From: Escherichia phage a48 | Length of the DNA stretch: 64,000 nt | Strand: one strand, 5' to 3' | Sequence record: OQ067375.1 | Part shown: piece after piece, positions 18,631 to 62,807 of the stretch | How the letters are laid out: every line of letters begins with the position of its first letter | Position numbering within the stretch: the stretch's first letter is position 1 | Program-made: the position numbers and the translations under genes | Notes under the pieces: model-generated | Told to the model about the DNA's origin: nothing | Databases searched by the model: none | The model's input: only the letters and a program-made list of their open reading frames with translations

Positions 18631-19101
18631 TTAATCATGTTTCCACACCCCATCGGTATTTGACCAAAGTCGCTGATTATCTGATCCTCGCCACAGCTTT
18701 TTAGTCGGAAGATTTTTCTCATACTTCCCATCAATAATAACATCAACATATTTAAGCATTTCTAGTTGTTTAATATCTTCAAACTTATATCCTGTCCACA
18801 ACCAAATGCTTTTATTGGGATAAAGATTTTTAATAGTTTGAACAATGCAATGAATAACATCTCGATTGTCAGGATAGAGAGGGTCTCCTCCAGTTATAGT
18901 CAATCCTTCTATATAATCATTATTCAAACATTCAATTAATTGTTCTAGTGTTTCACCAGTGAATGGAATACCATTTCTAGCATTCCATGTTGATTTATTA
19001 TAACACCCTTCACATTTATGCAAACAACCTGTAACGAAAAGAACGACCCTGCAACCAGGGCCATTAACAAAATCGCAAGGATAAAATCTATCATAATTCA
19101 T
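18631..19101 (-). CDS. nrdG: anaerobic ribonucleotide reductase activase (radical SAM)
   Basis: 156-aa ORF with cysteine cluster CLHKCEGCYN. Confidence 0.9.
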   Translation of the reverse strand: MNYDRFYPCDFVNGPGCRVVLFVTGCLHKCEGCYNKSTWNARNGIPFTGETLEQLIECLNNDYIEGLTITGGDPLYPDNRDVIHCIVQTIKNLYPNKSIWLWTGYKFEDIKQLEMLKYVDVIIDGKYEKNLPTKKLWRGSDNQRLWSNTDGVWKHD

Positions 19102-20915
19102 TGGTGTTTAACCCTATGCATGATTTCTTTATTTTTACCGAGATTAAATCCGCGTTCGTTCGGATTTCCCAAATAACCACATGTTCTTCTTATGGTATTC
19201 ATCTTTTTAGGATCAGTTTCTCCACAAATAGAACAAACAAATCCGTTTTCAGTAGGAGTCATTTCATGAGTACTTCCGCATGTAAAACATTTATCTACTG
19301 GCATGTTAACGCCAAAATAATCTAAATGTTGTGCAGCATAATCCCATACGGCCTCAAGACCTTTTAAGTTATTTTTCATATCAGGAAGTTCAACATAAGA
19401 AATGTGACCACCTGTCGCAATGAAATGATATGGTGCTTCGCGGGAAATCTTTTCAAACGGAGTAATATTTTCTTCTACTGAAACATGGAAACTGTTAGTG
19501 TACCAACCTTTATCGGTAACATCTTTTACACTTCCATATTTTTCTGTATCGAGTTTACAGAAGCGATAACAAAGGTTTTCAGCAGGAGTAGAATATAAAC
19601 TAAAAGCGAATCCGGTTCTTTCAGTCCACTGTTTAAGATGAGCATTCATTTTAGTTAAAATTTCTCGTCCAATATCACGACCGACAAGAATATTCAATTC
19701 GTGAATACCAATGTATCCCAAAGACACTGAACTTCTACCGTTTTTAAATAACTCAATTATGTCGTCATCAGGTTTAAGACGAACCCCGAATGCACCTTCT
19801 TGGTAAAGAATAGGAGCAACAGTAGCTTTAACTCCTTTTAAGGAACTAATTCTACACATCAAAGCTTCAAAACACAAATCCATTCGTTCATTGAATAATT
19901 CAACAAATTTCTGTTCATTGAACTGTGTTCCAATATAAGAATCTAACGCGATGCGAGGAAGATTCAGTGTTACAACACCAAGATTATTACGTCCATCAAG
20001 AATTTCATTACCAGTCGAATCTTTCCATACGCTCAAGAAACTACGGCAACCCATTGGAGAAACAGGAACAGATGAACCAGTGATAGCTTTATTGTTCTTA
20101 GCTGAAATAATATCAGGATACATCCTTTTGCTTGCACACTCTAGAGCAAGCTGCTTAATATCATAGTTCGGATCGTCTTTATAAAGATTAACACCTTCTT
20201 CAACGAACATAACAAGCTTAGGGAAAATAGGAGTTATCCCATCACGACCAAGACCTTTAATACGATTTTTCAGAATTGCTTTCTGAATCATTCGTTCAGT
20301 CCAGTCAGTTCCCGTACCAAATGTAATTGTTACAAAAGGCGTTTGTCCGTTTGAACTAAAGAGAGTATTTACTTCATATTCATAAGCTTGGAATGCATCG
20401 TATACGTCTTTTTCTGTTTTAGATTGAGCATAATTTAACGCATCAGCGATTTGCCATTTTTCTGCATCCTCAATATGTTTTGCATAGGTGCGTTTAACAT
20501 AAGGAGAAAGTACTTTATCTACATTAGCAAAAGTCGTTCCGCCGTATTGGTGAGAAGCAACCTGTGCAGTAATTTGTGCCATAATTGCAGTAGCAACGCC
20601 AATTGATTTAGGAGTTTCAATCTGCGCATTACCTAGCTTAAATCCGTTCTCAAGCATTCCTTTTAAATCTACTAAACAGCAATTAGTAAATGGAAGAGCA
20701 GGGGAATAATCAATATCGTGGAAATGGATAATTCCGCTTTCATGCGCTTTCATAATAAAAGACGGGACCATATTTTTGGCAATGTGTTTAGACACAATAC
20801 CAGCCATAAGGTCCCGTTGAGTTGGAAAAACACGAGAATCTTTATTAGCATTCTCGTTTAAAAGGTCTTTATTAGTTTTATGAATCAATCCTTCAATTTC
20901 TTTTTCAATTGTCAT
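19098..20915 (-). CDS. nrdD: anaerobic ribonucleotide reductase (glycyl radical enzyme), uninterrupted
   Basis: 605-aa contiguous ORF with C-terminal glycyl-radical motif RTCGYLGN and CxxC zinc site. Confidence 0.95.
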   Translation of the reverse strand: MTIEKEIEGLIHKTNKDLLNENANKDSRVFPTQRDLMAGIVSKHIAKNMVPSFIMKAHESGIIHFHDIDYSPALPFTNCCLVDLKGMLENGFKLGNAQIETPKSIGVATAIMAQITAQVASHQYGGTTFANVDKVLSPYVKRTYAKHIEDAEKWQIADALNYAQSKTEKDVYDAFQAYEYEVNTLFSSNGQTPFVTITFGTGTDWTERMIQKAILKNRIKGLGRDGITPIFPKLVMFVEEGVNLYKDDPNYDIKQLALECASKRMYPDIISAKNNKAITGSSVPVSPMGCRSFLSVWKDSTGNEILDGRNNLGVVTLNLPRIALDSYIGTQFNEQKFVELFNERMDLCFEALMCRISSLKGVKATVAPILYQEGAFGVRLKPDDDIIELFKNGRSSVSLGYIGIHELNILVGRDIGREILTKMNAHLKQWTERTGFAFSLYSTPAENLCYRFCKLDTEKYGSVKDVTDKGWYTNSFHVSVEENITPFEKISREAPYHFIATGGHISYVELPDMKNNLKGLEAVWDYAAQHLDYFGVNMPVDKCFTCGSTHEMTPTENGFVCSICGETDPKKMNTIRRTCGYLGNPNERGFNLGKNKEIMHRVKHQ

Positions 20916-38289: not shown

Positions 38290-38549
38290 ATACTGGCTTC
38301 TTTGAGTTTCGTTTTAGCAATAGTTAACTGATCGAGGCTTTCAGCATAATTCTTCGCGAATTCACAGTCTTCACAATTATCTAGTGCTTCCCAGAATTCA
38401 TCGTATAAAGCGTCAAAGATAAGTCCTAAACGAACTTCAGCGTCTTTGATTGCATTCACTTTACCGATTTTCTCTTCAGTATGTGGTTTATAACCTTTAA
38501 TGTCTTCAATCATATTTGACTTCCTCGCCAGTACCCAAATCATATTCAA
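38247..38549 (-). CDS. small acidic protein, candidate cyclic-nucleotide sponge (Vs.4/Acb2 position)
   Basis: 100-aa ORF (88 aa from MIEDIKGY); assignment is positional only, in the regB-denV block where T4 has vs.4. Confidence 0.4.
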
Positions 38550-38727
38550 CTAAACGAATAGGTTCATGAATGCCATATCCCTGAACAGAAATTTCTGTCG
38601 TAGGATAAATTCCATCAATATCACCCATATTCCACGCTTCATTAAATTGCTGTTCACCTGAATTACTAAACCACTCGGCGAAAGCATTTAACACATCTTC
38701 AGAACCTTCAATAATTATCTTTGCCAT
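38506..38727 (-). CDS. hypothetical small acidic protein
   Basis: 73-aa ORF. Confidence 0.4.
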   Translation of the reverse strand: MAKIIIEGSEDVLNAFAEWFSNSGEQQFNEAWNMGDIDGIYPTTEISVQGYGIHEPIRLVEYDLGTGEEVKYD

Positions 38728-39089
38728 TACAAACTTTCAGTAAAGGTACGAGCGATAACGTCGCGCTGCTGTTCCGGAGTCAGAGAGTTAAAGCGAACTG
38801 CATAACCGGATACACGGATGGTCAGCTGCGGATATTTTTCCGGATGCTTAACTGCATCTTCCAGAGTTTCACGACGCAGAACGTTAACGTTCAGGTGTTG
38901 ACCACCTTCAATTTTAACTGTAGGTTGTGGCTCAATTTCAATTTCACGGGCATGCAAACCATAGAAAATTTCTGGGTCTACAAAAGAGTCCTCTTTAAAG
39001 GTTTTAGAGACAATAATTCGTGCTTGAATACCATCTTCAAAATAAATAGTACCTTTATGTGTGCCTTCAAGAATTTGATATGCTTTCAT
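38727..39089 (-). CDS. autonomous glycyl radical cofactor (GrcA/YfiD-like)
   Basis: 120-aa ORF; C-terminal half [60 protein letters not shown] carries the RVSGY glycine-radical motif and matches E. coli GrcA. Confidence 0.85.
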
Positions 39090-39096
39090 ATAAACC

Positions 39097-39477
39097 TCAA
39101 TTAGAAAATAAATTTATCCAAGATTGTTCTTTAATTAAAAATGGCTCAGAATCATATGCCATTAAACTTTGGGTAATTAACCCTTTAAAAGGTCCATCAA
39201 TAAATTCCATGGTAAAATATGGAATTTTATTCATTAGCCGTGCATTAGGAGCAGTGCACAAAACTCTGCATCCTTTGAATACACCTTTTTGTAATTTGTA
39301 TTGCTTGGGATAAAATTCGCTTAAAATGTTGTTATTTGCCAAAATTTCAAAATGATTCACCAATTTATTTTTAATAGTTTTTGGCGAAAAATAAAGATAT
39401 TCGAAAAGCTGTGTGTCTGTCATCATTGCATTCCGATTACGAAAAACTGCGGACGAGTAATACCACCAATGCAACAT
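39097..39477 (-). CDS. hypothetical protein
   Basis: 126-aa ORF. Confidence 0.45.
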
Positions 39478-46121: not shown

Positions 46122-46197
46122 TGGTCGAGGCAGTAGGGATCGAACCTACGACCCAGGACTTAGAAGGTCCTTGCTCTTCCTTCTGAGCTATGCCCCG
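46122..46197 (-). tRNA. tRNA-Arg (anticodon UCU), CCA encoded
   Basis: Hand-folded cloverleaf: acceptor CGGGGCA/TGCCTCG, D-stem GCTC/GAGC, anticodon loop CTTCTAA, T-loop TTCGATC. Confidence 0.9.
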
Positions 46198-46200
46198 TAA

Positions 46201-46866
46201 TTAAAATTTCATTTTTCGACCTTTAAACCATCCTTCTGGAATTGGGTCAGTTTTCTTAATACGTTTAGAAACTTTTTCATCTAATGAATGAATCCACATC
46301 ATACCAAATTGGGAATTCTTTTCACCTTTCTGGTGATTATTTTTAGCGTGAATTTCTTTCATTTTATTAATAGTTTCAAGAGTATGATGCTTATTTAAAA
46401 ATCTGCTATTATTTAAAAATTTTTCCTTGTATTCAGGAGTTGACCATAAACGTTTAAATACATTTGAACCATTTTGACGATATTTTTCTTGAAGTAAAAT
46501 ATCATTTTTAAAACGTGACTTAAACGATTTAGCTCCTTTTAAACTAGCGTCTTTCTTCTGATTTAGCATCTCAGGAATATTTATATGATCCCATCCACCT
46601 TCACCGCCAAGTTTTAAATTATACACATCTGGTCTATTTAAAAACTCTTCTGTGACAATATTTTTCTCGGCTTCAAGCATAGATTCTTTATCATCAAAAT
46701 ATTCTAATATTTCTTTAGAAAAATTTTCTATACCATACCGGTCTTGGGCTCTTTTTAATAATTTACCAGAACCCATATATCCATCATCTAAATTTTCGGT
46801 AGAATGCACACCAATATAAATTTTATTATTAATTTTATTTGTTATTTTATAAAGATAAAAATGCAT
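46201..46866 (-). CDS. segB: GIY-YIG homing endonuclease (SegB-like) inside the tRNA cluster
   Basis: 222 aa from MHFYLYKITNKINNKIYIGVH...YMGSG (GIY-YIG motifs); ORF track's longer start would overlap the upstream tRNA. Confidence 0.8.
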   Translation of the reverse strand: MHFYLYKITNKINNKIYIGVHSTENLDDGYMGSGKLLKRAQDRYGIENFSKEILEYFDDKESMLEAEKNIVTEEFLNRPDVYNLKLGGEGGWDHINIPEMLNQKKDASLKGAKSFKSRFKNDILLQEKYRQNGSNVFKRLWSTPEYKEKFLNNSRFLNKHHTLETINKMKEIHAKNNHQKGEKNSQFGMMWIHSLDEKVSKRIKKTDPIPEGWFKGRKMKF

Positions 46867-46912
46867 ATCAGTCCTTAATAAAGAACTGAGCGTCTCACGA
46901 CGAGTCATAAAT

Positions 46913-46999
46913 TGGTGGGGAGTGGTGGAGTCGAACCACCCGAGTCGCAATGACAATGGATTTACAGTCCACACCGCTACCTCTACGGGATAACTCCCC
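46913..46999 (-). tRNA. tRNA-Tyr (anticodon GUA), class II with long variable arm, CCA encoded
   Basis: Hand-folded: acceptor GGGGAGT/ACTCCCC (7 bp), anticodon stem-loop GTGGA-CTGTAAA-TCCAT, long variable arm, T-arm GGTGG-TTCGACT-CCACC. Confidence 0.7.
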
Positions 47000-47008
47000 T
47001 AATTAATT

Positions 47009-47085
47009 TGGTGACCCAGACCAGATTTGAACTGGTAACCTTTCCCTTATGAGGGGACTGCTGCTAACCATTGAGCTACAGGGCC
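47009..47085 (-). tRNA. tRNA-Ile (anticodon CAU; Met assignment not excluded), CCA encoded
   Basis: Anticodon loop CTCATAA, T-arm ACCAG-TTCAAAT-CTGGT; one acceptor-stem mismatch. Confidence 0.75.
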
Positions 47086-47086
47086 T

Positions 47087-47162
47087 TGGTGCTGATTGAC
47101 GGAATCGAACCGCCGACGTCCTCATTACAAGTGAGGTGCTCTACCTACTGAGCTAAATCAGC
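47087..47162 (-). tRNA. tRNA-Thr (anticodon UGU), CCA encoded
   Basis: Minus-sense GCTGATTTAGCTCAGTAGGTAGAGCACCTCACTTGTAATGAGG...GGTTCGATTCC...CACCA. Confidence 0.9.
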
Positions 47163-47164
47163 AA

Positions 47165-47251
47165 CGGAGGCGATAGGATTTGAACCTATGAGTCGCCGGA
47201 GCGACTGCCGGTTTTCAAGACCGGTGCATTAAACCACTCTGCCACGCCTCC
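47165..47251 (-). tRNA. tRNA-Ser (anticodon UGA), class II, CCA not encoded
   Basis: Minus-sense GGAGGCGTGGCAGAGTGG...CCGGTCTTGAAAACCGG...GGTTCAAATCC; 2-nt spacer to tRNA-Thr. Confidence 0.9.
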
Positions 47252-47253
47252 AG

Positions 47254-47327
47254 TCTCCGTGGCAGGATTTGAACCTACGACATTCTGCTCCCAAAGCAGA
47301 CGCTCTACCAAACTGAGCTACACGGAG
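47254..47327 (-). tRNA. tRNA-Pro (anticodon UGG), CCA not encoded
   Basis: Minus-sense CTCCGTGTAGCTCAGTTTGGTAGAGC...TCTGCTTTGGGAGCAGA...GGTTCAAATCC. Confidence 0.9.
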
Positions 47328-47337
47328 TAAATTAAAT

Positions 47338-47411
<74 letters not shown>

Positions 47412-47416
47412 AAATT

Positions 47417-47503
47417 TGGTGCGAGAAGTGGGACTCGAACCCACAAGGAAATCATTCCGCAGCATTTTAAGTGCTGTGCCTTTACCAATTTGACCATTCT
47501 CGC
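47417..47503 (-). tRNA. tRNA-Leu (anticodon UAA), class II, CCA encoded
   Basis: Minus-sense GCGAGAATGGTCAAATTGGTAAAGGCACAGCACTTAAAATGCTG...GGTTCGAGTCC...CACCA, matches T4 tRNA-Leu. Confidence 0.9.
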
Positions 47504-47504
47504 G

Positions 47505-47577
47505 CTGGGAATAAAGGACTCGAACCTTTGCATCTAGCAGTCAAAGCGCTATGCCTTACCAACTTGGCTAATTCCCA
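47505..47577 (-). tRNA. tRNA-Gln (anticodon UUG), CCA not encoded
   Basis: Minus-sense TGGGAATTAGCCAAGTTGGTAAGGC...GCTTTGACTGC...GGTTCGAGTCC; abuts tRNA-Leu. Confidence 0.9.
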
Positions 47578-49933: not shown

Positions 49934-50658
49934 TATAGTACCTTTAGTGTATTTTTAATTTTAGAAAAAAGTTCTTCAAGAGAACCATCGTTTGTAATTA
50001 CTAAATCGCCATCACGAATTGGCAATCCAGCTTCTGTAATATGTGTATCATTGGATTTTTGACCAGGACGAACTACATGAATTACTGTAGCACCCATCGC
50101 CCTAGCCGCATCCATTTCATGATCTTGACGGGTATCAGGAACGATATAATAATCATAACCTGAGTTAAATTTATCAAGATAATCTAAAGCAAATAATTTT
50201 ACCCAGTACATGCGGTCGAAGTTATTAACAATCAAATCCGTACCTAGGGCTTGCATCAGACGACGGACTGACCATTGATCTTCAATATTATTTATAACGT
50301 CAGTAATTTTGTTAAATGCTACGAAATTAACTGATTCTTTTCCTTCGTCATCAAAAACAAACACACCTTTAATTGGGCTTTTACCATTAAGATAGCAAAA
50401 TGCTTGTTCCATAATCGTGATTACTTCTAATTTAGTCAGATTTAAATTAGTCTCACGATCATAGTCAATTCCTTCAAACTCTTTACGAGTTAAGCAAGGA
50501 TAGTCAGTGTTTGCTGCAAATACACCCCATGCATAAGCCAATGCATCCTTAATAGGACCAGCAAGTTGGTATTTAACTGCAGAATAATTACTCATGATAA
50601 AATCAGCAGTAGTATCTTTTCCACTACGCTTTACACCGCTTAAAAAGATTAGTTTCAT
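49933..50658 (-). CDS. 1: deoxynucleoside monophosphate kinase
   Basis: 241 aa from MKLIFLSGVKRSGKDTTADF (P-loop); ORF track's longer start lacks a ribosome-binding site. Confidence 0.93.
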
Positions 50659-50707
50659 GTGTTTCTCCTCAAATTTAATTAAGATTATAACACACAAAAC
50701 TGAAGCA

Positions 50708-51238
50708 TTAAACTTCTGCTATAATTTTACCATCTTTTTCTACTTGAAAATAGGTGTAAGGAATCGTTGCTGTACATACTAAAGCCGGGTCTGAATCTTC
50801 CGTGTAGCTAAATTCTACTTCAGATAGGTCAGAAACCCAAGGCTTATAAAAATTTATTGACATCACGATTTCAGTTTTACTATTATCTAAAATGTAAAGC
50901 GTAATGTATTCAGGACCTGTTTTTTGGGCAGTATTTTCGCCTGTAAGATAGTTACTAGTTCCTAGCATCCATTCATACATTCCTATCCACGACTTAAGCT
51001 CTTCGTCAACTATAAATCTCACGATGAGTGGATCGTACTCAAATGTAACACCTGGACGTTGTGCTCGACCAAGTCCAAACGGCCCAGTCACGGTATCAGT
51101 AACAGGTATTCTAATTCCTGGAATAGGAACTGACTGAGCATTTAAAGTAAAAGCAGATGTAGTATTACTATGTGGTATTGATACTACAAAGTTAGTTGTA
51201 TTTGCTTGGTTAAAAATTTGTTGCAGAGCTTGCGACAT
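50708..51238 (-). CDS. 3: tail completion / sheath stabiliser protein
   Basis: 176 aa from internal start MSQALQQIFNQANTTNF, matching T4 gp3 length. Confidence 0.9.
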   Translation of the reverse strand: MSQALQQIFNQANTTNFVVSIPHSNTTSAFTLNAQSVPIPGIRIPVTDTVTGPFGLGRAQRPGVTFEYDPLIVRFIVDEELKSWIGMYEWMLGTSNYLTGENTAQKTGPEYITLYILDNSKTEIVMSINFYKPWVSDLSEVEFSYTEDSDPALVCTATIPYTYFQVEKDGKIIAEV

Positions 51239-51344
51239 ATATTCCTCATAATGCTTTATAACTGTTGGTGGTATAATGGGTCTAAGTCCCTTCCATTCAA
51301 TTCCATTTAGAACAAACAACAGAAAAGAATGGAAGATAATAGAA

Positions 51345-52169
51345 TTAAATATTTGACCAGACTTTGTTTGCAGAGAAACGTTTTCCTTTTGAAACGAACT
51401 GCTGAAGTGGCATTAACACAACGTTCGCCCAGTCTTTCGGGGCGATTTCAACAAGGCTACCCATAATATTACCAGGTATATATGCCTTAATCATTTGGTC
51501 TGCACCCCTAAATCCTTTCACTTGACTCCAATCAATTTTTAATTTCGTTTTATTAGTAATAGTAGGTGTATTTGAATATTGCTTTAAAAGCTCTTCTAGG
51601 AATTGCTGGCGAGCTTTAGGTGGAATATAGTGCAAGTTCAATCCGTACATTAAATTATGCTTACCTAAACCAAGGTAAATTATCAAAGGAAATTTATCCC
51701 AGTAAGGAAGAGTTTCCTTGTGTTTAGCATCATAAGCAAAAGCATATATTCGTCCCGGCTGCGGGCGAACAACTTTATGTCCTTTTACTTGCTTAATAGT
51801 TTCAGCAAACCACTTTCTGGTTTTATTATTAATTGCTGCGCCTTCATTACGAATTTTATCGCGCAATGTTTGTCTGAATGAATTTATCATAAGCAGTTGT
51901 CTTTCTTGCTTATTGAGTTTATTCATTGGTTTTGATTCAAGCTTTTGAATCTTTTCAGCCGTTTTAATTCCTGAAGCATATTTTGACATTGCTGAAGTAA
52001 ACGTAGAGTATTTGATTCCTCTTTCTTCAGCAAATTGCTTTCCGGTCATTCCTTTTGCTTTGGCCTTTTTATATTCAAGACCTATCTGAATCCATTTCTT
52101 TTCGTTTAATGATTGCTTAACCTTTGGAACTTGGGGAGTGCTTTCATTAATTATTTGAAAAATAGCCAT
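51345..52169 (-). CDS. 2: DNA end-protector protein
   Basis: 274-aa basic ORF between 3 and 4, length as T4 gp2. Confidence 0.9.
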
Positions 52170-52621
52170 TATGCCCCCTTAAAGCCAAGAGCTCGTAATC
52201 CATCTTCTGTTAAAATTCTAAATTTTATTCCACGCTTTTCAGCTAAAGCTTGAGCTGCTTTCCATTTGTCAGTATTAACGGAATATGTATAAATTTCATT
52301 CATAAATCTTTTCTTCGCTGCAGTTGTTAGATGTGCTGGTTTAACTGGTGGTTGTGTTTCTTTTTTAGGTTTTATTTCAATAAAAAATTCTTGTCCAGAA
52401 GAATCTTTCATCCAAATATCCATGAAGTATCTACGTTTTTTCCCTTCTGCATTACAAAAATAAGGAATTACTGCTGTTTCACTACCCCATGCAATAATTT
52501 CTGGATTTTTATCTAACCATTCAAAAAAGAATTTTTCCCAATTTGATCTATACGTAATTTTTTTAGGGTCACCTCTATACTTTGATATATTTTTAGGAAC
52601 CCATTTTCCAGAATATGCCAT
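52169..52621 (-). CDS. 4: head completion protein
   Basis: 150-aa [39 protein letters not shown], length as T4 gp4. Confidence 0.9.
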
Positions 52622-52632
52622 TGGATTCTCCT

Positions 52633-52640
52633 TATAAATA
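52633..52640 (+). promoter_or_regulatory. late promoter (TATAAATA) for gene 53
   Basis: Exact TATAAATA ~30 nt upstream of the gene 53 ATG. Confidence 0.65.
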
Positions 52641-52647
52641 GATAATA

Positions 52648-52655
52648 TATTTATA
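52648..52655 (-). promoter_or_regulatory. late promoter (TATAAATA) for gene 4, divergent from the gene 53 promoter
   Basis: Plus-strand tatttata ~27 nt upstream of the gene 4 ATG at 52621. Confidence 0.55.
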
Positions 52656-52668
52656 AACAGGAGGGCCC

Positions 52669-53259
52669 ATGCTCTTTACATTTTTTGATCCGATTGAATA
52701 TGCGGCCAAAACGGTGAATAAAAACGCGCCGACTATTCCTATGACAGATATTTTTAGAAACTATAAAGACTATTTTAAACGCGCTCTTGCGGGATACCGC
52801 TTACGTACTTATTATATCAAAGGTTCACCACGCCCGGAAGAATTAGCAAATACTATATATGGAAATCCACAGTTGTATTGGGTTTTATTGATGTGTAATG
52901 ATAATTATGACCCGTATTATGGATGGATTACTTCACAAGAAGCAGCTTATCAAGCATCTATACAAAAATACAAAAATGTAGGTGGAGACCAAATAGTATA
53001 TCATGTGAATGAGAACGGTGAAAAATTTTATAATTTAATATCATACGATGATAATCCATATGTTTGGTATGATAAAGGTGATAAAGCTAGAAAATATCCT
53101 CAATATGAAGGAGCACTTGCTGCTGTTAATACGTATGAAGATGCTGTTCTTGAAAATGAAAAACTTCGTCAAATAAAAATAATAGCAAAATCAGACATTA
53201 ATTCATTTATGAACGACCTTATACGTATAATGGAGAAATCTTATGGAAATGATAAGTAA
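52669..53259 (+). CDS. 53: baseplate wedge protein
   Basis: 196-aa ORF preceded by late promoter TATAAATA, length as T4 gp53. Confidence 0.93.
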   Translation: MLFTFFDPIEYAAKTVNKNAPTIPMTDIFRNYKDYFKRALAGYRLRTYYIKGSPRPEELANTIYGNPQLYWVLLMCNDNYDPYYGWITSQEAAYQASIQKYKNVGGDQIVYHVNENGEKFYNLISYDDNPYVWYDKGDKARKYPQYEGALAAVNTYEDAVLENEKLRQIKIIAKSDINSFMNDLIRIMEKSYGNDK

Positions 53260-54970
53260 TAACCTCAACTGGTTTGTTGGTGTTGTTGAAGATAGAATGG
53301 ACCCATTAAAATTAGGTCGTGTTCGTGTTCGTGTGGTTGGTTTGCATCCACCTCAAAGAGCACAAGGTGATGTAATGGGTATTCCAACTGATAAATTACC
53401 ATGGATGTCAGTTATTCAACCTATAACTTCTGCAGCAATGTCTGGAATTGGAGGTTCTGTTACTGGACCGGTAGAAGGAACTAGAGTTTATGGTCATTTT
53501 TTAGACAAATGGAAAACTAATGGAATTGTCCTTGGCACGTATGGTGGAATAGTTCGCGAAAAACCGAATAGACTTGAAGGATTTTCTGACCCAACTGGGC
53601 AATATCCTAGACGTTTAGGAAATGATACTAATGTATTAAACCAAGGCGGAGAAGTAGGATATGATTCGTCTTCTAACATTATCCAAGATAGTAACTTAGA
53701 CACTGCAATAAATCCCGATGATAGACCACTATCAGAGATTCCAACCGATGATAATCCAAATATGTCAATGGCTGACATGCTTCGCCGTGATGAAGGATTA
53801 AGACTAAAAGTTTATTGGGATACTGAAGGATATCCGACAATTGGTATTGGTCATCTTATCATGAAGCAGCCAGTTCGTGATATGGCTCAAATTAATAAAG
53901 TTTTATCAAAACAAGTTGGTCGTGAAATTACTGGAAACCCAGGTTCTATTACGATGGAAGAGGCGACGACTTTATTTGAACGTGATTTGGCTGATATGCA
54001 ACGGGACATTAAATCACATTCTAAAGTAGGACCAGTCTGGCAAGCTGTCAACCGTTCTCGTCAAATGGCGTTAGAAAATATGGCATTTCAAATGGGTGTT
54101 GGCGGTGTAGCTAAATTTAACACAATGTTAACTGCTATGTTAGCCGGAGATTGGGAAAAAGCATATAAAGCCGGTCGTGATTCATTGTGGTATCAACAAA
54201 CAAAAGGCCGTGCATCCCGTGTTACCATGATTATTCTTACGGGGAATTTGGAATCATATGGTGTTGAAGTGAAAACCCCAGCTAGGTCTCTATCAGCAAT
54301 GGCTGCTACTGTAGCTAAATCTTCTGACCCGGCTGACCCTCCTATTCCAAATGACTCGAGAATTTTATTCAAAGAACCAGTTTCTTCATATAAAGGTGAA
54401 TATCCTTATGTGCATACAATGGAAACTGAAAGCGGACATATTCAGGAATTTGATGATACTCCTGGGCAAGAACGATACAGATTAGTTCATCCGACTGGAA
54501 CTTATGAAGAAGTATCACCGTCAGGAAGAAGAACAAGAAAAACTGTCGATAATTTGTATGATATAACCAACGCTGATGGTAATTTTTTGGTAGCCGGTGA
54601 TAAAAAGACTAACGTCGGTGGATCAGAAATTTATTACAACATGGATAATCGTCTTCACCAAATAGATGGAAGCAATACAATATTTGTACGTGGCGATGAA
54701 ACTAAGACAGTTGAAGGCAATGGAACTATCCTAGTTAAAGGTAATGTTACTATTGTAGTTGAAGGTAATGCTGACATTACAGTTAAAGGAGATGCTACCA
54801 CTTTAGTTGAAGGAAATCAAACTAACACAGTAAATGGAAATCTTTCTTGGAAAGTTGCTGGGACAGTTGATTGGGACGTTGGTGGTGATTGGACAGAAAA
54901 AATGGCATCTATGAGTTCTATTTCATCTGGTCAATACACAATTGATGGATCGAGGATTGACATTGGCTAA
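53243..54970 (+). CDS. 5: baseplate hub / tail-associated lysozyme and cell-puncturing spike
   Basis: 575-aa ORF; central lysozyme domain (DEGLRLKVYWDTEGYPTIGIGHL) and C-terminal VxGxxxxx beta-helix repeats. Confidence 0.96.
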   Translation: MEMISNNLNWFVGVVEDRMDPLKLGRVRVRVVGLHPPQRAQGDVMGIPTDKLPWMSVIQPITSAAMSGIGGSVTGPVEGTRVYGHFLDKWKTNGIVLGTYGGIVREKPNRLEGFSDPTGQYPRRLGNDTNVLNQGGEVGYDSSSNIIQDSNLDTAINPDDRPLSEIPTDDNPNMSMADMLRRDEGLRLKVYWDTEGYPTIGIGHLIMKQPVRDMAQINKVLSKQVGREITGNPGSITMEEATTLFERDLADMQRDIKSHSKVGPVWQAVNRSRQMALENMAFQMGVGGVAKFNTMLTAMLAGDWEKAYKAGRDSLWYQQTKGRASRVTMIILTGNLESYGVEVKTPARSLSAMAATVAKSSDPADPPIPNDSRILFKEPVSSYKGEYPYVHTMETESGHIQEFDDTPGQERYRLVHPTGTYEEVSPSGRRTRKTVDNLYDITNADGNFLVAGDKKTNVGGSEIYYNMDNRLHQIDGSNTIFVRGDETKTVEGNGTILVKGNVTIVVEGNADITVKGDATTLVEGNQTNTVNGNLSWKVAGTVDWDVGGDWTEKMASMSSISSGQYTIDGSRIDIG

Positions 54971-55499
54971 TATACTTCCAATGAGCGCTGATTTAGGAGA
55001 ATCCATGGAAGGTTCTTCTATCGACGTCACCTTTACCGCTCAATTAGAAACAGGTGAAACGTTAGTATCTATAAATATAACTAGTTACGAAGAAACTCCT
55101 GGGGTTTTAGTAGAAGAAAATCGCTTATACGGAACATATGAATCTGTGTTTGGATTTGGAAATGACGCGTTGAAATATCGTTTAGGCGATGAATTTAAAA
55201 CTGCTGCTTCATGGGAAGAACTTCCTACTGATTCTGATACTCAGTTGTATTTGTGGAAAGCTCCTCAGAACCTCCAGAAGACATTCACTTACGAAGTAAC
55301 ATTAATATATGACTACCAAGAACAAAGTGAATCTGGAGGTTCTGGCAGTAATTCTAGGTCATCCTCTGATACTACTGAACCGACGGATCCTCCTGCTCCA
55401 GTAAGAAAAACTCTAGTTAAAAATTACACAAAAACTATAGTTGGAAATTGGAGTCGTTGGGCTAATAAATTAAGAAGCTATGTGTATGAGAGGTCATAG
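54942..55499 (+). CDS. hypothetical protein (5.1-like)
   Basis: 185-aa ORF between 5 and the PAAR tip protein; start may be the internal Met near 54981. Confidence 0.6.
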
Positions 55500-55793
55500 A
55501 TGTCAGGATTAAGTTATGATAAGTGTGTTACTGCTGGCCATGAAGCATGGCCTCCAACAGTTGTGAATGCCACACAAAGTAAAGTATTCACTGGAGGAAT
55601 TGCTGTTCTCGTAGCAGGTGATCCAATTACAGAACATACAGAAATTAAAAAGCCATATGAAACACATGGCGGAGTGACACAACCCAGAACTTCTAAGGTA
55701 TATGTCACTGGAAAGAAAGCTGTTCAAATGGCTGATCCAATATCATGCGGTGATACTGTGGCTCAGGCATCATCTAAAGTATTCATTAAATAG
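55500..55793 (+). CDS. 5.4: PAAR-repeat spike tip protein
   Basis: 97-aa ORF between 5.1 and 6, as T4 gp5.4. Confidence 0.8.
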
Positions 55794-55801
55794 GATTTAA
55801 A

Positions 55802-57784
55802 ATGGCAAATACCCCTGTAAATTATCAATTAACAAGAACAGCAAATGCTATTCCCGAGATATTCGTCGGGGGTACGTTTGCTGAAATAAAACAAAACCTC
55901 ATTGAATGGCTTAATGGCCAAAATGAATTTTTGGATTATGATTTTGAAGGCTCAAGATTAAACGTTCTGTGTGACCTTTTGGCTTATAATACATTGTACA
56001 TTCAGCAGTTTGGTAATGCTGCTGTGTATGAAAGCTTTATGCGTACTGCTAACTTACGAAGTTCAGTTGTTCAAGCTGCACAAGATAACGGATATTTACC
56101 TACTTCAAAATCCGCTGCGCAGACCGAAATTATGTTAACATGCACCGACGCATTGAATAGGAATTACATTACTATTCCTCGCGGAACTCGCTTTTTAGCA
56201 TATGCAAAAGATACTTCTGTTAATCCATATAACTTCGTTTCTACCGAAGACGTTATTGCTATTCGTGATAAAAATAACCAATATTTTCCGCGTTTAAAAT
56301 TGGCCCAGGGACGTATAGTAAGAACTGAAATCATTTATGATAAATTAACACCTATTATCATTTATGATAAAAATATTGATAGAAACCAGGTTAAATTATA
56401 TGTTGATGGAGCGGAATGGATTAACTGGACGAGAAAGTCAATGGTTCATGCTGGTTCAACATCAACGATTTACTATATGCGTGAAACTATTGATGGAAAC
56501 ACTGAATTCTATTTTGGTGAAGGTGAAATTTCTGTTAATGCTTCTGAAGGAGCTTTAACTGCCAATTATATCGGAGGTCTTAAACCTACTCAGAACTCTA
56601 CGATTGTTATTGAGTACATCAGTACTAATGGTGCTGACGCGAACGGAGCAGTCGGATTTTCATACGCAGATACATTAACAAATATAACTGTCATCAATAT
56701 TAATGAAAATCCAAACGATGACCCAGATTTTGTTGGGGCAGATGGCGGCGGTGATCCAGAAGATATTGAGCGTATCCGCGAATTGGGTACTATTAAACGC
56801 GAAACCCAGCAACGCTGCGTAACTGCGACTGACTATGATACATTCGTTTCAGAGAGATTTGGTTCTATTATTCAAGCAGTTCAGACTTTCACTGATTCTA
56901 CTAAACCTGGTTATGCATTTATTGCTGCTAAACCTAAATCAGGTCTGTATTTAACTACTGTACAGCGTGAAGATATTAAAAATTATCTCAAAGACTATAA
57001 TTTAGCTCCTATTACGCCATCAATTATTTCTCCTAATTACCTTTTTATTAAGACTAATTTAAAAGTCACATATGCTTTAAATAAGCTGCAAGAATCCGAA
57101 CAGTGGCTCGAAGGTCAAATAATTGATAAAATTGATCGTTATTATACCGAAGATGTAGAAATTTTTAACTCATCTTTCGCTAAATCTAAGATGTTGACAT
57201 ATGTAGATGATGCAGATCATTCTATCATTGGCTCATCCGCGACAATTCAAATTGTTCGTGAAGTACAAAACTTCTATAAAACGCCTGAAGCAGGTATTAA
57301 ATACAATAATCAAATAAAAGACCGTTCTATGGAATCTAATACGTTTTCATTTAATTCTGGACGAAAGGTTGTAAATCCTGATACTGGTTTAGAAGAAGAT
57401 GTATTATATGACGTTCGCATAGTATCAACAGACCGAAATTCTAAAGGAATTGGTAAAGTTATTATTGGTCCATTTGCTTCTGGCGATGTTACAGAAAATA
57501 AAAACATTCGTCCATATACAGGAAACGATTTTAACAAATTAGCAAATTCTGATGGACGCGACAAATACTATGTTATCGGTGAAATAAATTATCCAGCTGA
57601 TGTGATTTATTGGAATATCGCTAAAATTAATTTAACATCTGAAAAATTTGAAGTTCAGACCATTGAATTATATTCTGACCCAACCGATGATGTTATCTTT
57701 ACTCGCGATGGTTCACTGATTGTATTTGAAAATGACTTACGTCCACAATACTTAACTATCGATTTGGAGCCTATATCACAATGA
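55802..57784 (+). CDS. 6: baseplate wedge protein
   Basis: 660-aa ORF, length and order as T4 gp6. Confidence 0.95.
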   Translation: MANTPVNYQLTRTANAIPEIFVGGTFAEIKQNLIEWLNGQNEFLDYDFEGSRLNVLCDLLAYNTLYIQQFGNAAVYESFMRTANLRSSVVQAAQDNGYLPTSKSAAQTEIMLTCTDALNRNYITIPRGTRFLAYAKDTSVNPYNFVSTEDVIAIRDKNNQYFPRLKLAQGRIVRTEIIYDKLTPIIIYDKNIDRNQVKLYVDGAEWINWTRKSMVHAGSTSTIYYMRETIDGNTEFYFGEGEISVNASEGALTANYIGGLKPTQNSTIVIEYISTNGADANGAVGFSYADTLTNITVININENPNDDPDFVGADGGGDPEDIERIRELGTIKRETQQRCVTATDYDTFVSERFGSIIQAVQTFTDSTKPGYAFIAAKPKSGLYLTTVQREDIKNYLKDYNLAPITPSIISPNYLFIKTNLKVTYALNKLQESEQWLEGQIIDKIDRYYTEDVEIFNSSFAKSKMLTYVDDADHSIIGSSATIQIVREVQNFYKTPEAGIKYNNQIKDRSMESNTFSFNSGRKVVNPDTGLEEDVLYDVRIVSTDRNSKGIGKVIIGPFASGDVTENKNIRPYTGNDFNKLANSDGRDKYYVIGEINYPADVIYWNIAKINLTSEKFEVQTIELYSDPTDDVIFTRDGSLIVFENDLRPQYLTIDLEPISQ

Positions 57785-60700
57785 CAGTAAAAGCACCTTC
57801 AGTCACTAGTCTCAGAATTTCCAAGTTATCCGCAAATCAGGTGCAAGTACGCTGGGATGACGTTGGTGCTAATTTCTACTATTTTGTAGAAATCGCTGAG
57901 ACAAAGACAGACTCGGGGGAAAATCTCCCGAGTAATCAATATAGATGGATTAACTTAGGATATACTGCAAATAACAGCTTCTTTTTTGACGATGCTGACC
58001 CATTGACATCATACATTATTAGAGTAGCTACAGCTGCACAAGATTTTGAGCAGTCTGATTGGATTTATACCGAAGAGTTTGAAACTTTTGCTACGAATGC
58101 TTACACATTTCAAAACATGATTGAAATGCAATTAGCCAATAAATTCATTCAGGAAAAATTTACTCTTAACAATTCTAATTATGTCAATTTTAATAATGAC
58201 ACTATAATGGCTGCATTGATGAATGAATCGTTCCAATTCAGCCCATCATATGTTGATGTTTCATCAATCAGTAATTTTATTATTGGTGAAAATGAGTATC
58301 ATGAAATACAAGGTTCCATTCAGCAAGTATGTAAGGATATTAACCGAGTTTATTTGATGGAATCAGAAGGGATTCTATATCTTTTTGAGCGTTATCAACC
58401 CGTGGTTAAAGTATCTAATGATAAAGGACAAACCTGGAAAGCTGTAAAGCTCTTCAATGACCGTGTAGGATATCCTTTATCTAAGACAGTATATTACCAA
58501 TCTGCGAACACAACATACGTTCTAGGATACGACAAGATTTTCTATGGCCGTAAATCGACTGACGTTAGATGGTCAGCAGATGATGTCAGATTCAGTTCGC
58601 AGGATATAACATTTGCTAAACTTGGCGACCAGTTACATTTAGGATTTGATGTAGAAATCTTTGGTACTTATGCGACTTTACCAGCGAATGTATATCGTAT
58701 AGCTGAAGCCATTACTTGTACGGATGATTATATCTATGTTGTTGCCAGAGATAAAGTTAGATATATAAAAACGAGTAATGCACCTATAGATTCTGACCCG
58801 TTATCACCAACATACTCGGAAAGACTTTTTGAACCTGATACAATGACTATAACTGGAAATCCTAAAGCAGTATGCTATAAAATGGATTCTATCGGTGATA
58901 AAGTTTTTGCTCTTATTATTGGTGAAGTTGAAACATTAAATGCCAATCCGAGAACTTCAAAAATAATTGATTCTGCTGATAAAGGAATATATGTTTTAAA
59001 TCATGACGAAAAAACATGGAAAAGAGTTTTCGGTAATACCGAAGAAGAAAGAAGACGTATTCAACCTGGATACGCAAACATGTCAACTGACGGTAAATTA
59101 GTTTCTCTGTCTTCGAGTAATTTTAAATTTTTAAGTGATAATGTTGTTAATGACCCTGAAACTATGGTGAAATATCAGTTAATCGGTGCTGTTAAATATG
59201 AATTTCCCCGTGAATGGTTAGCTGATAAGCATTATCATATGATGGCATTTATAGCGGATGAAAAATCTGATTGGGAGACTTTTACTCCTCAACCAATGAA
59301 ATACTACGCAGAACCGTTCTTTAATTGGTCTAAAAAATCTAACACACGCTGTTGGATAAACAACTCTAATAGAGCTGTAGTAGTTTATGCTGATTTAAAA
59401 TACACTAAAGTTATAGAAAATATTCCGGAAACATCACCAGATAGATTAGTTCATGAATACTGGGATGATGGTGATTGTACGATAGTAATGCCAAATGTTA
59501 AATTCACGGGATTTAAAAAATATGCGTCTGGGATGCTTTTTTATAAATCTTCTGGTGAAATAATTTCTTACTATGATTTTAACTATCGTGTGAGAGATAC
59601 AGTAGAAATTATTTGGAAGCCGACTGGAGTATTTTTAAAAGCATTTTTACAAAACCAAGAGCATGAGACTCCTTGGTCACCAGAAGAAGAGCATGGATTA
59701 GCTGATCCTGATTTAAGACCATTAATTGGCACAATGATGCCTGATTCTTATTTGTTGCAGGATTCGAATTTTGAGGCATTTTGCGAAGCATATATTCAGT
59801 ATCTTTCTGATGGATATGGAACTCAGTATAACAATTTACGAAATTTAATTCGTAACCAATATCCACGAGAAGAGCATGCGTGGGAATATTTGTGGTCAGA
59901 GATATATAAAAGAAACATTTATTTAAATGCTGATAAACGTGATGCTGTTGCGAGATTCTTTGAATCACGTAGCTATGATTTTTATTCTACTAAAGGAATT
60001 GAAGCATCATACAAGTTTCTTTTTAAAGTTCTTTATAATGAAGAAGTTGAAATTGAAATTGAATCTGGGGCCGGTACTGAATATGACATAATCGTTCAAT
60101 CTGATTCTTTGACTGAAGATTTAGTAGGACAAACGATTTATACGGCAACAGGAAGATGTAATGTTACTTATATAGAAAGAAGTTATTCTAATGGTAAATT
60201 GCAATGGACCGTAACTATTCATAATCTTTTGGGAAGATTAATTGCTGGTCAAGAAGTTAAAGCAGAAAGACTCCCTAGTTTTGAAGGCGAAATTATTCGT
60301 GGAGTTAAAGGAAAGGATTTGCTTCAAAACAATATAGACTATATTAATAGAAGTAGATCATACTATGTAATGAAAATTAAATCCAATTTACCTTCTTCCC
60401 GCTGGAAATCTGACGTTATTCGTTTTGTTCATCCAGTAGGATTTGGATTTATAGCAATTACCCTTTTAACGATGTTTATTAATGTTGGTTTAACTCTTAA
60501 ACATACAGAGACTATAATTAATAAATACAAAAACTATAAATGGGATTCTGGATTGCCTACTGAATATGCTGATAGAGTAGCTAAATTAACTCCAACCGGT
60601 GAAATTGAGCATGATTCAGTAACAGGCGAAGCAATTTATGAGCCTGGCCCAATGGCTGGTGTAGAATATCCTCTTCCTGATGACTATAATGCTGAAAATA

Positions 60701-60879
60701 ATAATTCAATATTTCAAGGTCAATTGCCGTCTGAACGACGTAAATTAATGAGTCCCCTATTTGATGCTTCTGGAACAACATTTGCGCAATTTAGGGATTT
60801 AGTTAATAAACGTCTAAAAGATAATATAGGAAATCCAAGAGACCCTGAAAATCCAACACAGGTTAAAATAGATGAATGA
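57781..60879 (+). CDS. 7: baseplate wedge protein
   Basis: 1032-aa ORF, length and order as T4 gp7. Confidence 0.95.
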   Translation: MTVKAPSVTSLRISKLSANQVQVRWDDVGANFYYFVEIAETKTDSGENLPSNQYRWINLGYTANNSFFFDDADPLTSYIIRVATAAQDFEQSDWIYTEEFETFATNAYTFQNMIEMQLANKFIQEKFTLNNSNYVNFNNDTIMAALMNESFQFSPSYVDVSSISNFIIGENEYHEIQGSIQQVCKDINRVYLMESEGILYLFERYQPVVKVSNDKGQTWKAVKLFNDRVGYPLSKTVYYQSANTTYVLGYDKIFYGRKSTDVRWSADDVRFSSQDITFAKLGDQLHLGFDVEIFGTYATLPANVYRIAEAITCTDDYIYVVARDKVRYIKTSNAPIDSDPLSPTYSERLFEPDTMTITGNPKAVCYKMDSIGDKVFALIIGEVETLNANPRTSKIIDSADKGIYVLNHDEKTWKRVFGNTEEERRRIQPGYANMSTDGKLVSLSSSNFKFLSDNVVNDPETMVKYQLIGAVKYEFPREWLADKHYHMMAFIADEKSDWETFTPQPMKYYAEPFFNWSKKSNTRCWINNSNRAVVVYADLKYTKVIENIPETSPDRLVHEYWDDGDCTIVMPNVKFTGFKKYASGMLFYKSSGEIISYYDFNYRVRDTVEIIWKPTGVFLKAFLQNQEHETPWSPEEEHGLADPDLRPLIGTMMPDSYLLQDSNFEAFCEAYIQYLSDGYGTQYNNLRNLIRNQYPREEHAWEYLWSEIYKRNIYLNADKRDAVARFFESRSYDFYSTKGIEASYKFLFKVLYNEEVEIEIESGAGTEYDIIVQSDSLTEDLVGQTIYTATGRCNVTYIERSYSNGKLQWTVTIHNLLGRLIAGQEVKAERLPSFEGEIIRGVKGKDLLQNNIDYINRSRSYYVMKIKSNLPSSRWKSDVIRFVHPVGFGFIAITLLTMFINVGLTLKHTETIINKYKNYKWDSGLPTEYADRVAKLTPTGEIEHDSVTGEAIYEPGPMAGVEYPLPDDYNAENNNSIFQGQLPSERRKLMSPLFDASGTTFAQFRDLVNKRLKDNIGNPRDPENPTQVKIDE

Positions 60880-61876
60880 TTCAAGTGTTATCTATCGTGC
60901 GATAGTTACTTCAAAATTTAGAACAGAAAAAATGTTGAATTTTTATAATTCAATTGGAAGTGGTCCGGATAAAAACACTATCTTTATTACATTTGGAAGA
61001 TCAGAACCATGGTCATCAAACGAAAATGAGGTGGGATTTGCCCCACCTTATCCCACCGATTCTGTGTTAGGTGTAACTGACATGTGGACGCATATGATGG
61101 GAACAGTAAAGGTTCTTCCATCAATGCTTGATGCAGTTATTCCTCGTCGAGATTGGGGAGATACTAGATATCCGGATCCGTATACATTTAGAATTAACGA
61201 TATTGTAGTGTGTAACTCAGCTCCTTACAACGCTACTGAATCAGGCGCAGGCTGGTTAGTATATCGTTGTTTAGATGTTCCTGATACTGGAATGTGTTCA
61301 ATCGCATCTTTAACTGATAAGGATGAATGCCTTAAATTAGGCGGAAAATGGACACCTTCTGTTAGGTCAATGACTCCTCCTGAAGGTCGAGGAGATGCTG
61401 AAGGAACAATTGAACCTGGGGACGGGTATGTATGGGAATATCTTTTTGAGATTCCACCCGATGTATCTATAAATAGATGCACGAATGAATATATTGTGGT
61501 TCCTTGGCCTGAGGAATTAAAAGAAGACCCGGCTAGATGGGGATATGAAGATAATCTCACTTGGCAGCAAGATGATTTTGGATTAATTTACCGGGTTAAG
61601 GCAAATACTATCCGTTTTAAAGCATATTTAGATTCAGTTTATTTTCCTGATGCTGCATTGCCAGGAAATAAAGGATTTAGACAAATATCAATAATCACGA
61701 ATCCTCTTGAAGCTAAAGCTCATCCAAATGACCCAAACGTTAAAGCTGAAAAGGATTATTATGACCCAGAAGATTTAATGAGGCATTCGGGCGAAATGAT
61801 TTATATGGAAAATAGGCCACCTATTATTATGGCAATGGATCAAACAGAAGAAATCAATATTCTGTTTACATTTTAA
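60872..61876 (+). CDS. 8: baseplate wedge protein
   Basis: 334-aa ORF followed by a hairpin terminator. Confidence 0.93.
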   Translation: MNDSSVIYRAIVTSKFRTEKMLNFYNSIGSGPDKNTIFITFGRSEPWSSNENEVGFAPPYPTDSVLGVTDMWTHMMGTVKVLPSMLDAVIPRRDWGDTRYPDPYTFRINDIVVCNSAPYNATESGAGWLVYRCLDVPDTGMCSIASLTDKDECLKLGGKWTPSVRSMTPPEGRGDAEGTIEPGDGYVWEYLFEIPPDVSINRCTNEYIVVPWPEELKEDPARWGYEDNLTWQQDDFGLIYRVKANTIRFKAYLDSVYFPDAALPGNKGFRQISIITNPLEAKAHPNDPNVKAEKDYYDPEDLMRHSGEMIYMENRPPIIMAMDQTEEINILFTF

Positions 61877-61881
61877 ATTAA

Positions 61882-61907
61882 GGGAGCCCATGGGCTCCCT
61901 TTTTTCT
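61882..61907 (+). terminator. rho-independent terminator after gene 8
   Basis: Hairpin gggagccc-atg-ggctccc followed by TTTTTTT. Confidence 0.7.
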
Positions 61908-61908
61908 T

Positions 61909-61916
61909 TATAAATA
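61909..61916 (+). promoter_or_regulatory. late promoter (TATAAATA) for gene 9
   Basis: Exact TATAAATA between the gene 8 terminator and the gene 9 ATG. Confidence 0.65.
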
Positions 61917-61940
61917 TTATAAACTCATAAGGAAACCGCT

Positions 61941-62807
61941 ATGTTCATTCAAGAACCAAAGAAATTGATTGATACCGGCGAAATTGGTAACGCTTCTACT
62001 GGTGATATCTTATTCGACGGTGGTAATAAAATTAATAGTGATTTTAACGCAATTTATAATGCGTTTGGCGATCAGCGTAAAATGGCAGTAGCAAATGGCA
62101 CTGGAGCAGATGGTCAAATTATCCATGCTACTGGGTATTATCAAAAACACTCTATTACAGAGTACGCAACTCCAGTGAAAGTTGGCACTAGACATGATAT
62201 TGATACCTCTACTGTAGGTGTTAAAGTTATTATTGAAAGAGGCGAACTCGGCGATTGTGTTGAATTCATTAACTCTAATGGATCAATATCAGTTACTAAT
62301 CCTTTAACAATTCAAGCTATTGATTCAATTAAAGGTGTTTCAGGTAATTTAGTAGTAACTAGCCCATATAGTAAAGTAACTTTACGCTGTATTTCATCTG
62401 ATAATTCTACATCGGTTTGGAATTATTCTATTGAAAGTATGTTTGGACAAAAGGAATCACCAGCTGAAGGTACATGGAATATTTCTACATCCGGATCAGT
62501 TGATATTCCACTATTTCATCGCACTGAATACAATATGGCTAAATTGCTAGTTACGTGCCAATCAGTAGATGGAAGAAAAATTAAAACAGCAGAAATAAAT
62601 ATTCTTGTGGATACTGTTAATTCAGAAGTTATTTCTTCTGAGTATGCTGTCATGAGAGTTGGAAATGAAACAGAAGAAGACGAGATTGCTAATATTGCAT
62701 TTAGTATTAAAACCAACTATGTAACGGCGACTATAAGTTCTTCTACCGTTGGCATGAGAGCAGCAGTTAAAGTTATCGCTACGCAGAAAATCGGGGTGGC
62801 TCAATAA
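61941..62807 (+). CDS. 9: baseplate wedge protein / long tail fibre socket
   Basis: 288-aa ORF with its own late promoter. Confidence 0.93.
   Translation: MFIQEPKKLIDTGEIGNASTGDILFDGGNKINSDFNAIYNAFGDQRKMAVANGTGADGQIIHATGYYQKHSITEYATPVKVGTRHDIDTSTVGVKVIIERGELGDCVEFINSNGSISVTNPLTIQAIDSIKGVSGNLVVTSPYSKVTLRCISSDNSTSVWNYSIESMFGQKESPAEGTWNISTSGSVDIPLFHRTEYNMAKLLVTCQSVDGRKIKTAEINILVDTVNSEVISSEYAVMRVGNETEEDEIANIAFSIKTNYVTATISSSTVGMRAAVKVIATQKIGVAQ

Follow-up and report, generated by a model that had tools for sequence, protein, structure and literature searches.

On the minus strand of the 64,000-nt stretch of Escherichia phage a48 analysed here (record OQ067375.1; hereafter the window) lies the T4 gene vs.6, which very probably encodes a phage GrcA acting as a spare part of pyruvate formate-lyase (PFL) and whose 3′ domain has been overwritten by the allele of the host, as happened independently in phages of Klebsiella. 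The identification of the open reading frame (ORF) calls for no new inference, this being the known and biochemically studied vs.6 (Y06I) of T4. In fact, the window belongs to a T4-type phage, and the 363 nt of the gene match several T4 records at 100% identity and the reference NC_000866 at 99.7%, and in the latter the RefSeq annotation is "autonomous glycyl radical cofactor GrcA" (UniProt P13316). The same sequence is shared by hundreds of phages that were sequenced independently, one instance being a separate T4 GenBank record of 8,008 bp (X04567). In PHROGs, the family to which vs.6 belongs (phrog_1209) is listed as of unknown function. The features discussed below are collected in Table 1.

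Table 1. Position of vs.6, its parts and the anaerobic ribonucleotide reductase genes in the window
Feature	Position	Strand	Remarks
vs.6 / Y06I CDS	38727..39089	−	120 aa + stop, ATG start; phage autonomous glycyl radical cofactor, GrcA homolog
Phage-type 5′ half, codons 1 to ~60	38912..39089	−	GC 34%, GC3 0.19; diverged grcA homolog
Host-derived tract	38734..38911	−	178 nt identical to E. coli grcA; encodes the structured glycyl-radical domain; GC 48%, GC3 0.40
Last two sense codons and stop, AGT TTG TAA	38727..38733	−	E. coli has AGC CTG
RVSGYAVRF glycine-radical motif	38790..38816	−	vs.6 aa 92-100; from translation and alignments
Gly95 of vs.6	38805-38807	−	aligns with YfiD residue 102 and PFL G734
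Shine-Dalgarno GAGG	39095..39098	−	5 nt upstream of the vs.6 ATG; overlaps the stop of the upstream ORF vs.7
NrdG	18631-19101	−	window ORF
NrdD	19098-20915	−	window ORF; radical site RRTCGYLG

The ORF upstream of vs.6, vs.7, ends at 39097, and the stop codon of vs.6 overlaps the ATG of the next ORF, vs.5, in the sequence TAATG. No promoter-like site was found directly upstream of vs.6, where the scan was not enriched over shuffled sequences, so the gene is probably read within a tightly packed array of early genes. In the supplements of an omics study (PMC9697503), vs.6 (P13316) is assigned to the early class for its RNA and to the middle class for its protein. We also observed that vs.5 (38506-38727), downstream of vs.6, has 73 aa in the window and 58 aa (177 nt) in the reference T4 annotation.

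At the protein level, the product has the properties of a GrcA, being small and stand-alone (~14 kDa), with a C-terminal domain that duplicates the glycyl-radical domain of PFL, RVSGYAV loop included, and an N-terminal half homologous to the N-terminal region of GrcA. The Pfam profile Gly_radical (PF01228) matched residues 61-101 with an E value of 2.8e-18 and 66.8 bits (cutoff 22.2), the YfiD structure 6OWR matched at E 8.6e-42, and residues 697-759 of PflB aligned with residues 58-120 of vs.6 (E 5.2e-26) through the same RVSGYAVRF loop, all in agreement with the GrcA/YfiD-type spare-part protein that a preliminary description had proposed. A BLASTP comparison with E. coli GrcA gave 74 identities in 100 positions (E 3e-52). 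Residues 61-120 are identical to residues 68-127 of GrcA/YfiD at 60 of 60 positions, which bears out the earlier remark that the C-terminal ~60 residues, RVSGYAVRF included, are the same as in E. coli. The N-terminal half was said to differ, and it does, with an identity to GrcA of ~35% (14/40), yet it is still homologous, since this half alone, when compared with the N-terminal half of GrcA by BLASTP, was recovered with an E value of 5e-6. Moreover, the N-terminal motifs of GrcA are common to the phage and host panels, and this half is conserved across T4-like phages. Its divergence is the reason why vs.6 scored 153.3 bits on the NCBIfam equivalog TIGR04365 ("spare_glycyl"), below the cutoff of 170 bits, with positions 25-126 of the 126 of the profile aligned, as compared to the 233.9 bits of E. 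coli GrcA.

The alignment of the DNA with E. coli grcA, run as a check on the preliminary description, revealed extended identity and placed the junction between nt 178 and 179 of the gene, upstream of which identity collapses abruptly to background. From this breakpoint to the stop codon (gene nt 179-363), vs.6 is 98.9% identical to grcA in E. coli genomes (E 7e-86), and the longest exact run is of 178 nt (gene nt 179-356). The sole differences in this part are two synonymous changes in the last two codons, which therefore mark the 3′ end of the replaced tract. The composition changes at this breakpoint as well (Table 1), the GC3 of the 3′ half is that of E. coli grcA, and the dS of the tract to E. 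coli grcA is 0.045, compared with ~1-2 in other phage genera. In a panel comprising grcA of 80 species of Enterobacterales and Pasteurellaceae, the nearest allele from outside Escherichia was 92.4% identical over the tract and, as far as these alleles indicate, the donor was specifically Escherichia. The 3′ tract thus combines a host-like composition and a sharp breakpoint with near-identity, at synonymous sites, to a single host species. The possibility that pflB was the donor was ruled out, vs.6 having GrcA-type residues and the other E. coli matches falling in the band of 60-80% identity.

The whole 64-kb window was compared by megablast, in three blocks, with 5,426 complete E. coli genomes. 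The grcA tract was the best match in every one of the 5,426 genomes (block 25001-50000), and no match was obtained for blocks 1-25000 and 50001-64000; among the matches listed, the only other one was to a tRNA gene, so the tract is the sole protein-coding host-like stretch in the 64 kb. The window contains a cluster of nine tRNA genes (Arg, Tyr, Met, Thr, Ser, Pro, Gly, Leu and Gln) at 46122-47577 on the minus strand, and the megablast match at ~46912-47002, overlapping the tRNA-Tyr gene, is 90% identical to an E. coli tRNA-Tyr gene.

Near-identity to the host might also arise with no transfer at all, by extreme purifying selection, by convergent codon usage or as an artefact of assembly or contamination, and it is true that the radical domain is extremely conserved at the protein level in all the phages examined. 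This explanation, to which we attach a negligible probability, is refuted by the comparison of synonymous sites. In fact, RB16-like phages (L094-L096 and L251) have the same 60 C-terminal residues as E. coli GrcA, with zero non-synonymous changes, but at a dS of ~2, which means that selection on the protein does not preserve the nucleotides. Against it are also the host-like GC3 of a tract enclosed in a gene whose other half has a phage-like GC3, and the recurrence of the same sequence in the hundreds of independently sequenced phages mentioned above, X04567 included. The radical domain is under very strong purifying selection, which is unusual for a phage accessory protein, and for this reason the identity of the protein alone is no evidence of recent capture; as proof of it, it is ruled out by the RB16-like phages themselves, in which 60 identical residues go with a saturated dS.

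A total of 1,588 phage records contained homologs of vs.6, with T4-like, T5-like, Aeromonas and jumbo phages among them. In the unconverted lineages, namely the CC31-like, RB16/RB43-like and KP15-like phages, the 3′ domains show 80-83% nucleotide identity to any host grcA, with exact runs of at most 29 nt and a dS of ~1-2. That a phage N-terminus of unrelated origin was fused to the C-terminus of the host protein was ruled out by the homology of the N-terminal halves (E 5e-6) and, on these comparisons, vs.6 is not a fusion but an old phage ortholog of grcA, the 3′ domain of which was recently replaced by the host allele. It is the nucleotide identity of the T4 tract (dS 0.045) that shows a recent replacement within a pre-existing phage gene. 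Thus, the recent capture of a host gene segment, as put forward in the preliminary description, holds as far as the 178 exact nucleotides, the Escherichia donor and the rise in GC3 from 0.19 to 0.40 are concerned, but the segment replaced the 3′ domain of an existing grcA and was not captured onto an unrelated N-terminus.

All the Tequatrovirus and Mosigvirus genes sampled carry the E. coli-type tract at 96-99% identity, and their 5′ halves differ by ~10%. Between T4 and a Mosigvirus, no other 100 nt within the surrounding 2 kb are as conserved as the tract. The dS between T4 and Mosigvirus, based on small counts, is 0.37-0.40 in the 5′ half and 0.14-0.17 in the 3′ half, a contrast suggestive of a tract that is younger or has been re-homogenised. 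The 3′ edge of the tract can be recognised in Mosigvirus and in other genera by the last ~10 nt of the gene, which have the phage-type ending GAG AGT CTA TAA. In addition, phage polymorphisms at positions 195, 219 and 282 coincide with allelic variants of E. coli and, being so few, they are compatible with either repeated conversion or recurrent mutation.

The same architecture of vs.6 is present in the Klebsiella phages of the genus Jiaodavirus, in which an AT-rich 5′ half homologous to that of T4 (GC3 0.18-0.23) is followed by a 3′ half with a GC3 of 0.59, starting at the same codon as in T4, E61 (GAAGG). Their 3′ tracts are exact matches to grcA of the K. pneumoniae complex over 107-140 nt; in one phage (L108), the match extends over 158 nt with one mismatch. 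The grcA used for this comparison was the chromosomal gene on bacterial metagenome contigs, whose GrcA protein, by exact look-up, is that of Klebsiella (GRCA_KLEP7; K. pneumoniae, K. variicola and K. quasipneumoniae). On these contigs, the gene after grcA is a large ORF in the opposite orientation, which, from its resemblance, we take to be a putative DEAD-box helicase. Since the E. coli and Klebsiella alleles are ~14% different over the tract, at least two separate host-to-phage events are required. The phage domains also carry the variant of the host genus: E. coli-type phages have LEDAVKH, and Klebsiella-type phages share LLDAVEH with their hosts.

A third host donor may have contributed to the K. 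oxytoca phage PKO111 (L249), as its sequence hints. Compared with other Jiaodaviruses, PKO111 is 96-97% identical in the 5′ half; in the 3′ half the identity is 92%, with 13-14 extra synonymous differences that leave the protein identical to the other Jiaodavirus proteins; no donor for its 3′ tract was found in the panels of 160 host alleles. Tequatrovirus phages isolated on Yersinia still carry the E. coli allele and this, together with the unconverted RB16/RB43-like phages, indicates that conversion takes place from time to time and does not follow the host as a matter of course.

These data allow us to propose how the mosaic could have been produced. In the lineage of Tequatrovirus and Mosigvirus, the 3′ domain of vs.6 was overwritten by the E. 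coli grcA allele, likely by homologous recombination or gene conversion involving host DNA fragments and the phage genome as it replicated, as the sequence pattern suggests. The replaced tract runs from the onset of phage-host homology (codon 61) to a few codons before the stop, and the coincidence of the breakpoint with the start of nucleotide homology between phage and host is what recombination or gene conversion would produce. We consider it reasonably likely that host-templated conversion recurs at the radical domain of phage grcA, with at least two events running from E61 to near the stop, and that the spare part is in this way kept matched, in each of its residues, to the GrcA variant of the local host.

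What the spare part does is documented for the T4 protein itself. In the account given in PMC8683613, Wagner et al. 2001 (PMID 11444864; BBRC 285:456) reported that both Y06I and YfiD rescue oxygen-cleaved PFL; the two proteins obtain the glycyl radical from the PFL-activating enzyme (PFL-AE), and PFL cleaved at Gly734 is reactivated. According to the same source, they are still the sole two validated spare parts, residues 1-60 of YfiD, which are disordered, contribute to activation and to the binding of cleaved PFL, and residues 61-127 have the same fold as PFL 693-759. Since YfiD 61-127 has this PFL-like fold, aa 61-120 of vs.6 (YfiD 68-127) correspond almost exactly to the structured catalytic domain. 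By extension from the biochemistry of YfiD and Y06I, when oxygen cleaves PFL at Gly734 the vs.6 protein would dock into the cleaved enzyme and receive the glycyl radical from the host activase PFL-AE, and the charged complex would regain the conversion of pyruvate to acetyl-CoA and formate. T4 shuts off host gene expression and, presumably, host GrcA could therefore not be replenished during infection; with a copy of its own expressed early, the phage would keep the PFL already present active while oxygen levels in the gut fluctuate. This benefit to the phage is our inference, and no phenotype of a vs.6 knockout was found in the literature searched.

The strong difference between the N-terminal half of vs.6 and that of the host protein (~35% identity), together with the fact that in YfiD this half governs the binding to cleaved PFL and the efficiency of activation (PMC8683613), could suggest that the phage protein is instead a decoy or modulator, which, in competition with GrcA or PFL of the host, would bind PFL-AE or cleaved PFL and so redirect host fermentation. 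We regard this as very improbable. As related in PMC8683613, Y06I reconstitutes activity as YfiD does; moreover, the N-terminal half of vs.6 keeps the conserved motifs of the GrcA N-terminus, and in more than 1,500 phage records an exact PFL-type domain is maintained by strong purifying selection, in keeping with a catalytic part that works.

A different client for the spare part was considered in the preliminary description, which pointed out, correctly, that the phage also encodes the anaerobic ribonucleotide reductase NrdD and its activase (Table 1), and took this as a sign that it carries its own repair module for oxygen-damaged glycyl-radical enzymes, which would include NrdD. The protein could in this case be a spare domain for oxygen-cleaved NrdD, or be charged by NrdG in place of PFL-AE. 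Besides the presence of both genes in the window, this is favoured by gene order in other phages: in the Aeromonas phage PX29 (L166, 1359-4947) the order is nrdD-nrdG-vs.6-nrdC-nrdH, with the homolog overlapping the end of nrdG; in L130 the homolog is downstream of nrdD-nrdG, and in the jumbo phages L107, L109 and L110 (~350 kb) it is between nrdD and nrdG. In addition, a role in nucleotide metabolism was proposed by Nolan et al. 2006. However, BLASTP detected no similarity between vs.6 and the NrdD of the window (the best E value was 2.7, and not at the radical site RRTCGYLG), and all the phage homologs, those linked to nrd genes included, keep the PFL-type signature. In the window, vs.6 is ~18 kb from nrdD and nrdG, the published reconstitution, as described in PMC8683613, used PFL and PFL-AE, and the synteny may only reflect a shared anaerobic gene module. 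A link of vs.6 with the anaerobic reductase is, on the whole, improbable, albeit less so than the decoy. Of its two forms, a direct role in the repair of NrdD is unlikely and is rejected on sequence grounds, the domain being of the PFL type, and the synteny elsewhere leaves a weak link to NrdG, so that activation of the vs.6 protein by NrdG is a possibility of low probability.

The synteny of vs.6 homologs with nrd genes recurs in unrelated phage lineages, suggesting a shared anaerobic module or a link to the activase, and it raises the question of whether phage activases can charge spare-part proteins. Other peculiarities were observed in the nrd region of the window. Here nrdD is a single uninterrupted ORF of 605 aa, without the group I intron and I-TevII of the reference T4; mobC is absent between nrdG and nrdD, which overlap by 4 nt, and NrdG is identical to the reference at 126 of 156 aa, with a diverged middle part and a nucleotide identity of ~50% in the central third. 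These differences (18631-20915) indicate that the window is of T4 type but is not the reference sequence in this region.

The gene vs.6 and its function are already known, at textbook level for T4 specialists, and the finding of the gene by itself therefore adds no new biology. As for the nucleotide mosaic, its explanation by the replacement of a domain in an old gene of the phage and its Klebsiella parallel, no mention was found in the literature searched, and Wagner 2001, Bowman 2019 and the T4 review Miller 2003 may contain it. Although T4 degrades the DNA of its host and modifies its own, the vs.6 tract represents a clean, datable case of DNA exchange between a lytic phage and its host within a functional gene, and it offers an easy assay for the rate of host-to-phage recombination. 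If conversion is recurrent and selected, phages would have in it a means of keeping one of their auxiliary metabolic proteins compatible with the enzyme of each new host.

In comparison with known systems, vs.6 is the same gene as the T4 Y06I/vs.6 of Wagner et al. 2001, with no difference at the gene level. With E. coli GrcA (YfiD; NMR structure 6OWR) it shares the C-terminal 60 residues, including the radical glycine loop, the layout of a variable or disordered N-terminal half followed by a PFL-like radical domain, and the rescue of oxygen-cleaved PFL with PFL-AE, as reported in PMC8683613. By contrast, GrcA has 127 aa and vs.6 has 120, the N-terminal half of vs.6 is AT-rich and ~35% identical, and the phage gene is expressed from an early phage transcript instead of a host promoter. 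The C-terminal glycyl-radical domain of PflB (697-759; PDB 2PFL and 1H16), which has the same RVSGYAVRF loop, is the part of PFL that the spare part replaces; unlike this domain, vs.6 is a free-standing protein of 14 kDa, and at the variable positions its residues are of GrcA type, where PflB reads MNREMLLDAMEN. As a separate observation, the C-terminus of the vs.6 homolog on a T4-like IMG/VR contig (L114) reads MNREMLLEAMEDPTKY and is nearer to PflB (MNREMLLDAMENPEKY) than to GrcA, hence some phage spare parts may derive from pflB and not from grcA.

The closest analogy for the mosaic is with psbA of cyanophages, for which intragenic recombination between host and phage is said to have been described by Zeidner in 2005 and Sullivan in 2006. 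In that case too, the phage reportedly carries its own version of a metabolic gene of the host, the product of which takes the place, during infection, of a host protein prone to damage, and the gene is reportedly a mosaic with host-derived segments, and the vs.6 tract, if our reading of recurrent conversion is true, would be the enterobacterial counterpart of the psbA mosaics. The protein and the hosts are different, and in vs.6 the tract is of ~180 nt, with one fixed breakpoint at the edge of homology. Moreover, unlike the psbA case, the tract of vs.6 is still exactly identical to a present-day allele of the host.
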